Shown here piece by piece: positions 56,801 through 63,638 of a DNA stretch of 64,000 bases; the stretch's first letter is position 1; each line of letters begins with the position of its first letter. Source of the DNA: Anolis carolinensis (taxonomy: Eukaryota); contig NC_085846.1 in NCBI RefSeq assembly GCF_035594765.1, positions 12,635,190-12,699,189 on the forward strand. Reading direction: 5' to 3'. The translations under genes and the position numbers were made by a program. Below the pieces are notes generated by a model that made no database searches, was not told the origin of the DNA, and saw only the letters and a program-made list of their open reading frames with translations.

Positions 56801-59800
56801 GCAGGTATTGTATCCATATTAGAAATGTGTCAGTAGCAGAATGTGAGGAAATGACCTTTTTTATATTACAGCTTTTTATCCTGCAGCCATTTGCTGATTA
56901 GTGTGAGAAATTTGAATGTTAAAAGCTTTCACAGCATTGGATCAGTGTACCTAAAGAGCTGATTTACTCCATATGTACCCACTTGCACTGAAACTTGTTC
57001 CTGACAGGGTACATCTTAGGGTGCATCTTGAACTCACATAAATGGGGACATAGTGTGAGAGGATCCCTTGCTTAACCTTCTGCTGAAATCGAAAGCTGAC
57101 ATTGGCTACATTTCCCTGTTTCAACAGATCAATATCATTTTATTCCTTAGCATGTCTAATTAATTAAAGTACTATAGTACTTAATATTAGAAGCTCATAG
57201 TATGAAAAACCACTGAATTTTGAACTAGAAGTGCCATGAAAAATCCAGGAAAGTTTGGAGCTTGGGCATACTCCTTTCTGGATGACAACTCCAAGATCCC
57301 CCCTGCCTTCCCAATTTCTGCTACACAAAGAACGAAAATCATGAAACAGGCTGTGTAGATTGGATATCCCTATGTCTGCTCAGTATTCAAGTAAATGGTT
57401 GCAAGGCCATCATTTTCTATAAGTAAACTTCAAGACACAGATCTGCAATAAGCTGCCATTCTTTCCACGTTCCCTGCAGTAATTTGGCTGGCCTGGATTA
57501 GTCTACTGCAACAAAAATGGTTCAATGGATCTTCATGGATTTGGTTACTCACATTTTTGCAAGCTCCAGCTTGTTTCATTGGGTGCTTGAACTGGATAAC
57601 AATTGGTATCTCTGTGGAGGTGGGTTCTAATTGGTTTTGGTTTACCAGATGTGTCAAAAAGTGGATGCGCATTAACTTGGGAGTGAGTCTTTGAAGAGGT
57701 ATTGCTGAAAAACACCTCAGATCAGGCAATGTAAAGTTAAAAAACCAGTTTGAATAGAGTAAGAGGAATGTGGAAAAAGAGGAATGGTAAGACATGAAAA
57801 GCTATCAGTCAGTCGTTAGGGTATACTTAACTAGCCATGGTAAAAAGAGACTAATTAAACCAACACAGTTTGTATACTGTACATACTTCTGAGCACCGTC
57901 AAACCTCAAGAATCTGTCAGTGAAATCAATGACACCTAAAGCAAGCATGGAAGATGTGTTGCTCTCCAGATATTGTTCACCTTCAGGAACGTCCATCCTA
58001 CATTGCATATCCAGCAGTGAGGAATGGTGAGAGTTGCAGTCCTGCTTTAGGTTTCATTGAAGTACTCCCCTTTTCCACCCATCCCTACTCCCTCCTCCCT
58101 TCTCCTGTTGGACTGAATATCACCTGGGTCTCAGTGAGAGAAGGCAAGGGAGAAGTTACAGCGTTTCTGGAGGTGAGAGCTCCTTCCCACTCCCTCCTCC
58201 CTTCTCCTGTTGGACTGAATATCACCTGGGTCTCAGTGAGAGAAGGCAAGGGAGAAGTTACAGCGTTTCTGGAGGTGAGAGCTCCTTCCCACTCCCTCCT
58301 CCCTTCTCCTGTTGGACTGAATATCACCTGGGTCTCAGTAAGAGAAGGCAAGGGAGAAGTTACAGCGTTTCTGGAGGTGAGAGCTCCTTCCCACTCCCTC
58401 CTCCCTTCTCCTGTTGGACTGAATATCACCTGGGTCTCAGTGAGAGAAGGCAAGGGAGAAGTTACAGCGTTTCTGGAGGTGAGAGCTCCTTCCCACTCCC
58501 TCCTCCCTTCTCCTGTTGGACTGAATATCACCTGGGTCTCAGTGAGAGAAGGCAAGGGAGAAGTTACAGCGTTTCTGGAGGTGAGAGCTCCTTCCCACTC
58601 CCTCCTCCCTTCTCCTGTTGGACTGAATATCACCTGGGTCTCAGTGAGAGAAGGCAAGGGAGAAGCTGCATCCATTGGAGTCAGCACTTTTACCACCCTA
58701 GAAGATCCACTCGGAAAGTCTTCGCCAGTCCGGAGGCCTTCCATTGATTATTTTTTTCTGACTTTGTCATGGAACCTGTTGTCCTTGTATGAGTGTTTCC
58801 CTCATCAGACGAACCGGTTGCTGCCGCCACTTGGCCTTTTCTCCTCTTTTTTGTTCTCTCCCGTCCCTTTTAAAATTCTATGTTATTTTATTTTAGCTGT
58901 GTAAGTATATAGAGTATACTCAACCTACACTTTTTAATTGCTCTGGGCCATTAGTATTCTGTTTTTTGTTTTTGTTTTTTTTTACTACGGTTTTGATATT
59001 TTAGTGGAAAATGAATCAGCTGGATACATATGGGATCTGCGAACTGTCCCAGCTATGCCACCTTATGGGCAGATCTTTTAGCCTCGTTTTTTCACAGCTT
59101 GTAACTGTGAATGAGAAACTAGATCATCTCATCAAGGGAATTTCGCAACTGGCAAATGCCACTAGACATCAAGATGTTCCTGAGGATGAGAATAATATTG
59201 GATATAACTCGAGGGAATCCAGTTGGCATTTAGATTTTGGGGGGGAGAAAATACCTGGGTTTCAAAAGGGCAGCAAGGAGTTAATATTGGATAATGGGAG
59301 TATCGAGGGAATGGATGATATGTGTGCTGAACAAACTGGCCCGTGAAGGGTAGATATGGATATGGATATAGGTTTGGGAGTGGCGAAATCATCAACGAAG
59401 GCTCCATTGGAGGGGGATTTCTCTTCTCCTCATGTTGAGTGCCGCCATGGCCATACCTTGCAAACGAAACAACTGGCCTTTCTAATTAGAGACTCCACAT
59501 GGAATAGGGGTAGATGGACCTCGAAAAGAGCGATCCAGAGGTCCTTGGTTCAGATTTTATCAAGGAGCCTGACTACAGTCAAGATTAAGACCATTACGTG
59601 GCTCCAGAAGGACTATCAATCACACGATCGCTCTATACGCCTCATTTCCAACTTTGAGGATAAGTCTATTATAGAGGAGTTATGGGCCCTTAGGTCCTGG
59701 CTGCTATCATGGGGCATCACCATCAGAAAAGTAATAGTAGACCCCGTGATTCGTCCTCTTGTGGCCAACTTGTCTTTATATACTCAAGCACTAACTAGGC

Positions 59801-62800
59801 CCAATGATAATAGGATGTTCAATCCTCACTGTAGGTCCCCTTCCTCAGAAAAGTCGCATCTAGATGTTCTGGCCCAATCTTTCTCAGTCCCTTACCAGCA
59901 ATCGTTGCCTCCCCCTACTCCTCGAAGATTTTTCGGTAGGCCCCACTTGTCCCCTTTCTTGGAAGCTAGGCTAGTTGGAAATTCCAGCAGTCATTTGGAC
60001 TTGGGGAGTTGACTAGACTCTCCAAATGATGTTCCAACTGAGCCAGATTCCCTGGGGGATGGGAACCGGGTGGGGTTTGGTTCCATCGAGGTCGTGTGGG
60101 GGAGGAGAAATTGCGGTCGACGGATTCCCAGGGAGAAGCGCAACAGAGTTCTTGCGACCCTGGAGAAGGATAGGTGTGGTAGCCTCGATGGCAGACCCTC
60201 CGGGCTGAAGGTCCTGCTGCTCAATGCCAGATCCGTCAAGGGTAAATCATCTATTATCCAGGATTTAATCCTGGATGAGCAGGCGGATCTGGCTTGCATC
60301 ACCGAGACCTGGCTGGATGAACTGGGTGGAGTTAGTCTTTCCCAGCTTTGTCCTCCGGGTTTCGGGGTGCATCAGCAGGCCAGGCCGGGAGGGCGGGGAG
60401 GTGGGGTTGCGGTGGTCTTTCGGCAGTCCATCGCCCTGGTCAGATGCGCCGCTTTGCAACCTGCCGGGCTTGAGTGTCTCCACCTGAGGGTGGGTACCCG
60501 GGACAGTTTGGGGATTCTGCTGGTGTACCGTGTACCCCGCAACACAGCAGTCTCCCTGCCTGAGCTAGCAGAGGTGGTCTCTAGCGTGGTGCTGGGTTCC
60601 CACCGCCTGGTGGTGCTGGGAGATTTCAACATTCACGCTGAGGCCACCTTGACAGGTGCAGCTCAGGAATTCATGGCCGCCATGACGACCATGCGACTGT
60701 CCCAAGTGATATCCGGTCCCACTCATCAAGCTGGACATACACTCGACCTGGTTTTTGTTGCGGGCGACGGTTTGGTTGGAGTGGAAGAGCAAACTATCCT
60801 TCCATTGTCATGGTCCGACCATTATCTGATCAGTTTAAGACTCACCACACCAGTAAACCTCCGCAGGGGTGGTGGACCCATTAAGATGGTCCGCCCCAGG
60901 AGACTTATGGATCCTGAGGGATTCCTGAGGTCTCTTGGGGATCTGTCTGCCATGGAGCCTGACGATCCTGTCGATGCCTTGGTCGCTCACTATAACAGTG
61001 AGTTGTCCAGGGCTATAGACATGATCGCCCCCGAACGTCCACTCTCGCTACGTGGAGTTGCCCCAGCCCCCTGGTTTACTGGGGAGCTGACGGAGATGAA
61101 ACATGTGAGGAGGAGACTAGAGTGCCGCTGGCGGACAACTCGTGATGCATCTGACCGAGCACGGTCTAGAGCCGCTATTAGGGCCTATTCCGCGGCGTTG
61201 CGAGCAGCCAGGAAGGCTTTCTCGACTGCCCGCATCGCGTCTGCAACAACTAGATCCTCAGAGCTGTTTCGGGTTGTTGGGGAGCTCCTCCACCCTCCTC
61301 AGGCTGGGGGGGCACCTGACATCCCGGCAACTCGGTGTAGCGAGTTTGCTCACCATTTTGCAGACAAAGTCGCTCAGATTCGTTCCGACTTAGATGCTGG
61401 CCTTGTTGCAATGCCAGGTGAGGTAGCCGAGGCTTCTGTCTGTTCGATCTTGTGGGATTCGTTTCAGCTTGTGCAGCCTGATGATGTGGACAAGATTCTT
61501 GGAGCGGTGAGGGCGACCACCTGTGCCCTTGACCCTTGCCCATCTTGGCTCTTAAAACAGGCCAGTGGTGGGTTGGTTGATTGGTTTGTGAGAATAATTA
61601 ATGCCTCTTTGGAGCAGGGTAGATTTCCATCTAATCTAAAACAAGCGGTGGTGAGACCTATCTTAAAGAAGGCCTCCCTAGATTCGACCAACTTGCATAA
61701 CTACAGACCAATCTCCAACCTTCCATTTTTGGGCAAGGTCTTGGAGCGGGTGGTTGCCTCTCAGCTCCAGGGATTCTTGGATGATACGGATTCTCTGGAC
61801 CAATCGCAGTCTGGCTTCAGGCCTGGTTTCAGTACCGAGACGGCTTTGGTCGCCTTGGTGGATGACCTCCGCAGGGAGCTGGACAGGGGGAGTGTGACCC
61901 TGCTGGTTCTCTTGGATATCTCAGCGGCTTTCGATACCATCGACCATGGTATCCTTCTGGGACGTCTCTCCGGGATGGGCCTTGGGGGTAATGTTCTGCA
62001 CTGGCTTCAGTCCTTCCTAGAGGGGCGTTCCCAGATGGTGAAGCTGGGGGACACCTGCTCGGACCCCTGGCCATTGTCCTGTGGGGTCCCACAAGGTTCT
62101 ATTCTGTCCCCCATGCTTTTCAATATCTACATGAAACCGCTGGGCGAGGTCATCCGGGGTTTTGGAGTTCGGTGCCATCTCTACGTGGATGACACCCAAC
62201 TCTACTACTCTTTTCCACCAAAATCCAAGGAAGCCCCTCGGATACTGGACCAGTGTCTGGCCGCTGTATTGGCCTGGATGAGGGCAAACAAGCTGAAGCT
62301 CAATCCTGACAAGACAGAGGTCCTCCAGGTCAGTCGAAAGTCCGATCGGGGTATTGGGTGGCAACCTGTGCTTGACGGGGTTGCACTCCCCCTGAAGGCG
62401 CAGGTCCGCAGCTTGGGGGTCCTCCTGGATTCGGGGCTGACGCTTGAGGCTCAGGTGTTGGCCGTGGCCGGGAGGGCCTTTGCACAACTAAAACTTGTGC
62501 GCCAGCTGCGACCATACCTCGAGAAGTCTGATCTGACTACGGTGGTCCATGCCTTAGTTACCTCTAGACTGGACTATTGCAATGCGCTCTACGTGGGGCT
62601 GCCTTGAAGACGGCCCGGAAATTGCAATTAGTTCAGCGCTCGGCAGCCAGGCTTCTAACAGGAGCAAACTACAGGGCGCGTTCTACGCCTCTGTTTAAGG
62701 AGCTTCACTGGCTGCCGTTTGTTTTCCGGGCCCAATTCAAGGTGCAGGTTATCACCTACAAAGCCCTAAACGGTTTGGGACCCACCTACCTTAGAGACCG

Positions 62801-63638
62801 CATCTCCCCCTATGAACCTGCACAATCTCTTCGCTCTTCGGGGGAGGCCCTCCTCTCGCTCCCACCACCTTCGCAGTTGCGGCTGGTGGGGACGAGAGAG
62901 AGGGCCTTCTCCGCTGTGGCCCCCCGCCTCTGGAACTCACTCCCAAGGGAGATTAGACAGGCCCCCACCCTCCTTGCCTTTCGAAAAAGCCTTAAAACCT
63001 GGATTTTCCAGAGGGCCTTCGACGACTAATTTTTGGGGGTTGATTTGTCTGCCCATTTAATTTAATTAGAGAGTGTTCTGCCATGATTATTGATACCTTG
63101 CTGAGTACTTCTGCCACGAAGCTACAGAAGCCCTCTATTTCGGCCTAGAACTGTTTTATCTCCTTGTTTTTAACATGTGATGTATGTATTGATTGTATGA
63201 CTGCTTTTCATGTTTGATTTTACAATGTGTAATTTGTCACTGTTTTTATTATTGTTGTGAGCCGCCCCGAGTCCCCTCGGGGAGATGGGGCGGGATATAA
63301 GAATAAATTTATTATTATTATTATAATGTCCAGCTGTTTATCTTGTCGCATCCAATGTAACAAAATACCAGGAGTTAAACAAACAGAAAGCAGGACAATC
63401 ACAGTGGAAGACTCTGACAGGGTATTGGTTACCAGTCCTTCTTTATTCTTTCTCTCTCTCCTCCACAGCCTCCTTGCTGAACTCTTACATCTCCAGGACT
63501 TTGAATCCAATCCTCGCTCTGCCATCTTACTAGATCTGTACTTCTACACCATTCAGTTCAGTAGGGAGCAGGGTTTCAACCGGGAACAGACCTCGACCTT
63601 CTTCTCAATTGTGAAGGATGTACATGAGGCCTGCGTGG
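53785..63638 (+). CDS. CFAP119: Cilia- and flagella-associated protein 119 (CCDC189/C16orf93), 5' part; continues beyond the window
   Basis: Exons 53785-53853 (start uncertain; alternative in-frame ATG at 53830), 55975-56006, 56403-56468, 63469-63638 splice in frame to ..KAKICMWKYLDVHSMDL..SLLAELL..AILLDLYFYTIQFSREQGFNREQTS..VHEACV, resembling CFAP119 as I recall it (RICMWKYLDVHSM, QQGFSLEQTS). Head-to-head with RNF40 as in human. Confidence 0.85.
54670..55123 (+). mobile_element. RTE/BovB 3' fragment
   Basis: YGCENWT, RVPWTARRS, KYFGHIMRR, GKMEGKRKRGRPRARWMD. Confidence 0.9.
58087..58665. repeat. 102-bp tandem array, about 5.7 near-identical copies
   Basis: TCTCCTGTTGG recurs at 58101, 58203 and onward; the only internal variant I found is G>A at 58340. 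Confidence 0.97.
59011..60012 (+). pseudogene. Putative L2 ORF1 (333 codons, one internal TGA at 59344-59346)
   Basis: ORFs 59011-59346 and 59356-60012 share one frame; N-terminal heptad-like LVFSQLVTVNEKLDHLIKGISQL; lies directly upstream of ORF2. Confidence 0.65.
60013..63029 (+). pseudogene. L2 ORF2 (EN-RT), disrupted by a 1-nt frameshift near 62603
   Basis: Frame open 60013-62607; C-terminus continues in another frame to 63029 (YVGLP / LKTARKLQLVQ). YADD reads YVDD, consistent with GCG>GTG CpG decay. Confidence 0.9.

Follow-up and report, generated by a model that had tools for sequence, protein, structure and literature searches.

A conserved in-frame UGA-CUA junction points to stop codon readthrough between ORF1 and ORF2 of an Anolis L2 retrotransposon

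The stretch of Anolis carolinensis DNA analyzed here (contig NC_085846.1, positions 12,635,190 to 12,699,189; 64,000 nucleotides, hereafter the window) carries on its plus strand, at about 58082-63326, a near full-length, mutated copy of an L2-type LINE (long interspersed element). Its two open reading frames (ORFs) lie in one frame and are separated by a single UGA followed by CUA. We find that this stop codon is a real, family-wide and selected feature, and propose that ORF2p is probably made by programmed readthrough of the UGA, as a minor ORF1p-ORF2p fusion. Readthrough is favored because the two ORFs share a frame, TGA-CTA is conserved, the subfamilies have no start codon in common downstream of the stop, and selection acts on both sides of it.

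Results

ORF1 of the window copy occupies 59011-60012 (333 codons plus TGA), and ORF2 continues in the same frame from 60013 to 63029. The junction AGT-TGA-CTA-G (60007-60016) comprises the last Ser codon, the stop and the conserved CTA, and is a candidate readthrough signal. A first-pass annotation made from the sequence had noticed this layout, and its main elements hold: the ATGs at 59011 and 59356 and the codon at 60070 share a frame, the TGA at 60010-60012 is followed by CTAG, and beyond the stop no in-frame ATG occurs until 60673, past the endonuclease GDFN motif. Its reading of 60013-62607 (864 codons) as open was also correct; 62607 is not the end of ORF2, however, as a one-base loss near 62604 shifts the remainder into another frame.

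The stop and the bases after it were surveyed across the genome with patterns tied to the IEVxWG codons that lie downstream, for which reversed-pattern controls gave no matches. With the stop codon left free there were 448 matches, compared to 443 with TGA-CTAG, so that TGA is present in 443/448 junctions. With the following bases left free there were 781 matches, 768 of them with TGA-CTA. There is thus no family-level sense codon at 60010. Of the TGACTAG noted in the first-pass annotation, TGA-CTA is kept, and position seven holds G, T or A depending on the subfamily; the conserved unit is UGA-CUA, the type II readthrough motif, and not strictly CUAG. The anchor alone matched 868 sites, and 12 of the first 100 lacked the junction: nine were 5'-truncated, one was deleted, one had a change in the Ser codon and one belonged to another family. 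In frame were 87 of the first 100 genome-wide matches. TGACTAG was present in all 29 site-spanning loci among 30 fetched (the thirtieth begins inside the stop). A wider alignment, which omits 11 duplicate or truncated loci and those without an endonuclease match, has it in 96 of its 102 rows. A protein search with the ORF1 core, which made no use of the junction, recovered TGACTA in 59 of 63 rows, with two deleted over the site and two carrying single changes; in the same rows, the commonest hexamer at each of eight neighboring positions reached only 18-37/63. The counts free of circularity are 443/448, 768/781 and 59/63.

In at least ten copies, an ORF1 of 321-342 codons and an ORF2 of 1001-1006 codons are separated by this TGA only, and some of the unbroken TGA-split copies belong to near-identical, young subfamilies. 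The subfamilies that have the junction in common differ strongly, with ORF1 38% identical. A tree built from 75 in-frame copies places no change in AG-TGA-CTA, compared to at least one change at each of 66 flanking sites (mean, 4.2). Of 92 distinct sequences, 75 entered the tree, 17 being set aside as frameshifted, truncated or deleted; motif-containing patterns had been used to select 23 of the 75 (from L185-L223). The flanking sites (59980-60084, ORF1 tail and linker) changed 4.2 times, compared to 2.0 at endonuclease fourfold sites, which suggests fast evolution or recombination between subfamilies around the junction.

Two side observations concern the DNA at the junction. At a single locus (L095, the same as L156), the stop is lost in an in-frame deletion that spans -68 to +280 and leaves ORF1 fused to a truncated endonuclease. 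In addition, 5' ends occur near the stop: five of the first 100 anchor matches start at +5 to +10 (L225, L226, L228, L230 and L231; three placed against close references, two approximate), window-family copies L023, L026 and L027 begin at -16, -4 and +1, and of 39 copies that have a close relative, none begins within 190 nucleotides upstream of the stop. This pile-up may stem from cleavage of RNA where a ribosome terminates, of the type seen in nonsense-mediated decay, or from a short transcript.

Purifying selection is evident on both sides of the stop. The ratio of nonsynonymous to synonymous substitution rates (dN/dS) was 0.18 in the RRM part of ORF1 among 11 subfamily copies; in ORF2 it was 0.30 between the IEV motif and the endonuclease, and 0.19 within the endonuclease itself. 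ORF2p must start before the endonuclease, and probably before the IEVVWGR motif at 60085. Among 24 representatives selected for open frames, the distance from stop to endonuclease is 192-210 nucleotides and always a multiple of three, and a frame-shifting family indel, which we looked for as a sign of an independent ORF2, was not found. Nine of the 24 have no in-frame AUG, CUG, GUG, UUG or ACG between the stop and the IEV motif, and the commonest candidate start position is used by only nine. A start of ORF2's own is missing from most subfamilies, whether as an AUG or as a shared near-cognate codon, and present as an in-frame AUG in one.

Related elements place this junction in a wider context. 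A more distant L2 family, found via ORF1 homology, has TGA-CTA-T in frame, preceded by His or Asn, in 16 of 20 loci, with four not scorable; Ser before the stop is therefore not universal, and the hexamer is. A second LINE clade in the same genome, with a reverse transcriptase (RT) about 27% identical to that of the window family, also has ORF1 and ORF2 in one frame. We take this clade to be RTEX-like from its general features; its homologues carry no clade names. One of its groups reads TGA-CAA-CTA or TGA-CAA-TTA at 17 of the 19 loci, the others having TAA-CAA-TTA and a decayed site; here, the first endonuclease strand begins two codons after the stop and the first Met lies inside the domain. 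In a young group with near-identical copies, each of 17 loci reads AAT-TGA-CTG-TCA, and two of these loci have unbroken frames of 486 and 1155 codons. The ORF1s of the second clade and the window family are homologous (HHalign, 99.2%), so the two clades are not fully independent cases, and a module of ORF1 plus leaky stop was possibly exchanged between them. Members of the second clade (L257-L302 and L306) have been absorbed by a public gene model into an isoform of a ras-GEF gene (P0129, P0138).

L2 elements outside these groups start ORF2 conventionally. In a sister family, 65% identical in the N-terminal part of ORF2, there is a single ORF whose Met precedes the motif by 39 codons (as scored for 17 of 18 stretches fetched). 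In a basal L2 family, the upstream frame is unrelated, 377 codons long and out of phase, and there is a Met close ahead of the motif. In the AUG-bearing L2 outgroups, Met lies upstream of the equivalent pre-endonuclease motif. Podarcis and Varanus L2 proteins also begin with Met near the motif, with starts that are gene-model calls.

ORF1p is predicted by AlphaFold2, from 11 sequences, to have a long N-terminal helix (residues 3-52), a beta-alpha-beta-beta-alpha-beta, RRM-like domain (residues 153-242, about 59467-59736) and a disordered Ser/Pro-rich tail. The mean predicted local distance difference test score of the model is 52.6, rising to 75-89 over most of the RRM-like domain. The best structural match was the central domain of human L1 ORF1p (Z 6.9, root mean square deviation 3.1, 82 residues aligned), tied with other RRMs. 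Foldseek with the model gave nothing at E<=0.001, and Pfam found no domain in ORF1. The model fits an RNA-binding ORF1p, with a middling structural match.

The remaining features of the window copy are those of an APE-type non-LTR (long terminal repeat) element: an APE domain followed by RT in ORF2, dispersed copies, 5' truncation, a simple-repeat 3' end and no LTRs. An array of 102-bp units (58082-58665, plus strand; 5.7 copies, 99% alike), also found in sister copies, is likely the promoter region. Such 5' monomer arrays recall the promoter arrays of mouse L1, and tandem monomers of about 136 bp each also occur in the single-ORF sister family (L167, L176). The 5' untranslated region (UTR) spans 58666-59010. 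Downstream of the stop, on the plus strand, are the conserved pre-endonuclease motif IEVVWGR...PREKRNRVLATLEK (60085-60168), the APE-type endonuclease (PF03372; 60229-60822, ORF2 residues 73-270) and the reverse transcriptase (PF00078; 61675-62328, residues 555-772), followed by the 3' UTR (63030-63326), which has a GC-rich tail near 63260-63300 and a (TTA)n end. GC content is 0.564 in ORF2 and 0.456 in ORF1 of the window family; with an AT-rich ORF1 lacking a Pfam domain and no RNase H, the features of lizard L2 sub-clade I are present. The RT clusters with squamate and fish proteins (44-79% identical), none of them labeled L2, and apart from the second clade.

Two lesions are private to this copy. 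Near 62604 it has one base fewer than a sister copy, so that the C terminus of ORF2 continues in another frame to 63029; intact sister copies have 1004-1009 codons after the stop. The premature stop at 59344-59346, previously attributed to CGA>TGA decay, arose instead from AGA, the codon in the other covering loci, and contigs of four of four sequencing runs read T>A here. A host exon with a match to CLAMP (PF14769, flagellar C1a-32) lies just downstream, at 63449-63637 on the plus strand, and the LINE probably sits in sense in an intron of a CLAMP-domain host gene.

Discussion

We predict that most ribosomes would stop at the UGA and release ORF1p, and that a near-cognate tRNA would let a few per cent add an amino acid at this point and go on to translate the endonuclease and RT. 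The product would be a fusion of about 1340 residues, with many ORF1p molecules made per polymerase, as in gammaretroviral gag-pol. It would retain the helix and RRM of ORF1, and a linker of about 150 poorly conserved and mostly disordered residues would connect these to the endonuclease. UGA-CUA corresponds to the type II motif of Beier and Grimm (PMC3159437; PMC13517186), used by alphaviruses and, as AGC-UGA-CUA, by a dicistrovirus (PMC13517186). Four vertebrate readthrough genes show universal conservation of the first six bases, and readthrough with UGA-CUA alone is 1.5% (PMC4132726). A deep scan found CU to be essential and CUAG nearly always best, with a strong influence of the codon before the stop, one Ser codon giving 7.2% (10.64898/2026.07.14.738498). 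CAR-YYA, the motif found in one group of the second clade, is the readthrough motif of tobacco mosaic virus (PMC3159437), and after UGA in the OPRL1 context gives about 15% readthrough (PMC4132726).

Several observations weigh against this proposal. The DNA evidence for conservation of the junction comes from one genome: of two metagenome scans for the junction outside it, one was empty and the other gave one distant locus without a clear ORF1, and ORF1 homologues P0130-P0133 are known as proteins only, without DNA context. On the tree, 19 of 69 fourfold endonuclease sites are also unchanged, so the invariant third base of CTA counts for little by itself. Constraint is weak over the 28 codons that follow the stop (dN/dS, 0.66). 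Some subfamilies have CUAU or CUAA in place of CUAG, and in human reporters readthrough fell with 764 of 765 changes to CUAG (10.64898/2026.07.14.738498). The second clade's UGA-CUG is absent from the listed readthrough motifs. Alphavirus UGA-CUA is boosted by a 3' structure (PMC3159437); here, folding revealed none that is conserved (mean z of +1.0 over 27 copies), and a consensus fold of -5.5 kcal/mol, with one of 19 pairs compensated, supported neither a stem-loop nor a pseudoknot. The gag-UGA-pol junction of Tca2 gave no readthrough in yeast reporters (PMC2194720). Lastly, the subfamily of L207 and L222, which accounts for 15 of the first 100 genome-wide rows as counted by eye, keeps TGA-CTA and has an in-frame AUG five codons after it, so that reinitiation is open to it. 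The related copies L209 and L217 lack this AUG, which is probably derived.

The best surviving alternative, which we consider unlikely, is that ribosomes terminate at the UGA and then reinitiate at a near-cognate codon or AUG to make a separate ORF2p, with UGA-CUA kept because slow termination favors restart. L1 ORF2 has been reported to tolerate loss of its AUG. Termination-reinitiation has been described for SART1 and proposed for L1 (PMC5972666), and besides the AUG at +5 in one subfamily, nine of the 24 representatives have CUG, UUG or GUG at codon +14 (CTG in the window family). Restart would have to do without any such codon in the nine representatives that lack one before the motif, and would compete with out-of-frame AUGs within 65 nucleotides of the stop in 15 of the 24. 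Reinitiation also has no need of both ORFs in one frame. The second clade is a further difficulty, as its endonuclease begins two codons past the stop and follows another known readthrough motif: restart does not readily account for two such motifs occupying the same place in the architecture.

Alternatively, ORF2p could be translated from a separate RNA, either spliced, with the junction conserved as a branch point, or a short transcript starting near the stop; we regard this as improbable. The junction segment AGYTGAC fits the branch-point consensus yUnAy, and an AG is found near +32 to +36 in many representatives, yet no AG position is common to all 24. Junction-crossing deletions each occur at one locus, do not follow GT-AG and include no splice products, and the DNA upstream of the 12 junction-less exceptions shows no joined 5' UTR. 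The five anchor matches that begin at +5 to +10 would fit a short transcript, and Tca2 has a minor junction promoter (PMC2194720), but a short RNA would still be without a start codon. Contigs of three of four runs guessed to be RNA span the junction with no listed change or joint at 60010-60016; as contigs drop rare variants, these are not used as evidence regarding splicing, editing or expression.

Recoding of the stop, by adenosine-to-inosine editing of UGA to UGG or by insertion of selenocysteine, is very improbable. UGA is the sole stop open to either route, and TGA is fixed, but there is no conserved duplex over the stop, and a search of Rfam over 58000-63500 gave no matches, including to the selenocysteine insertion sequence. 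Editing would moreover be copied back as TGG, whereas at most five of 448 junctions are non-TGA. The first-pass suggestion that the TGA represents decay of one ORF of about 1340 codons fits the other private lesions of the window copy, but this, or an inherited neutral feature, has next to no probability: decay is refuted by the 443/448 count and the unchanged stop on the tree, with TGA present across divergent subfamilies and in young intact copies and every flanking site changed.

The proposed readthrough resembles several known systems. Like murine leukemia virus (MuLV) gag-pol, the element has structural and polymerase ORFs in one frame with one stop between them, and a low, set ratio would be expected. 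MuLV has a protease, and the LINE lacks a protease domain. MuLV uses UAG-G plus a pseudoknot (PMC13517186), compared to UGA-CUA and no conserved structure found here. The same hexamer, with six fixed bases, is found in Sindbis and chikungunya viruses (UGA-CUA), PSIV (AGC-UGA-CUA) and AQP4, MAPK10, OPRK1 and OPRL1 (UGA-CUAG). In contrast to these type II cases, the present one lies in a non-LTR retrotransposon, would add an enzyme of 1005 residues as the extension, and has G, U or A as the seventh base depending on the subfamily. SART1 (UAAUG coupling), L1 (reinitiation) and 2A StopGo elements likewise down-regulate ORF2p from one RNA, but do so with an AUG or a 2A peptide and yield a separate ORF2p (PMC5972666; PMC3894237), whereas a fusion is proposed here.

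Translation of LINE ORF2 has been described as an open question (PMC3894237). Reviews discuss coupling, reinitiation, internal ribosome entry sites and 2A (PMC5972666; PMC3894237; PMC5009743), and readthrough is not among the mechanisms in the accessible parts of two of them (PMC5972666; PMC3894237). The first-pass annotation knew of no such report for L2; our literature search, beyond whose reach lay most subscription papers and Repbase notes, likewise found none for a vertebrate LINE, yet readthrough has already been suggested in print for a LINE of Paramecium. Group 3 non-LTR elements of Paramecium also have ORF1 and an APE-RT ORF2 in frame with a stop between, and readthrough was suggested from consensus sequences (PMC5405496). 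That clade is ciliate-specific, with no motif analysis or test in the accessible text (PMC5405496), whereas the family described here belongs to the vertebrate L2 clade and has a recognizable motif. Lizard L2 sub-clade I, described in Anolis, is alike in its GC-rich ORF2 (about 55% in that study), AT-rich ORF1 without a Pfam domain, many co-active families and unrelated ORF1 in basal families (10.1101/788562). That study found no ORF1 domain, and the available text lacks the terms 'stop codon', 'readthrough' and 'in frame' (10.1101/788562); in our analysis, ORF1 is predicted to be RRM-like and is joined to ORF2 in frame by UGA-CUA. A 2026 survey treats lepidosaur L2s as lacking ORF1, and 'stop codon' and 'readthrough' are absent from its accessible text (PMC13343379). 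Readthrough would explain why annotated ORF2 entries of these families (784-785 amino acids) start at an internal Met.

We tentatively extend the proposal, at somewhat short of even probability, to two distant vertebrate LINE clades: both would make a Gag-Pol-like fusion by readthrough at one of two viral-type motifs, UGA-CUA or UGA-CAR-YYA, L2 having swapped its own AUG for the shared module of RRM-ORF1 plus leaky stop, and the fused polymerase would be recruited to its own RNA through co-assembly with ORF1p. What the sequences describe is probably a known mechanism in a class of elements for which it has so far only been suggested. The hundreds of natural junctions constitute an evolutionary scan of readthrough context, including the codon before the stop, the seventh base, and CUA compared to CAR-YYA. 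LINEs studied to date use coupling, reinitiation or 2A and give free ORF2p; a readthrough fusion in an abundant LINE clade of vertebrates, if true, would add a retrovirus-like solution with a set ratio of ORF1p to ORF2p, and would tie transposition of these elements to the termination factors and tRNA pools of their host.

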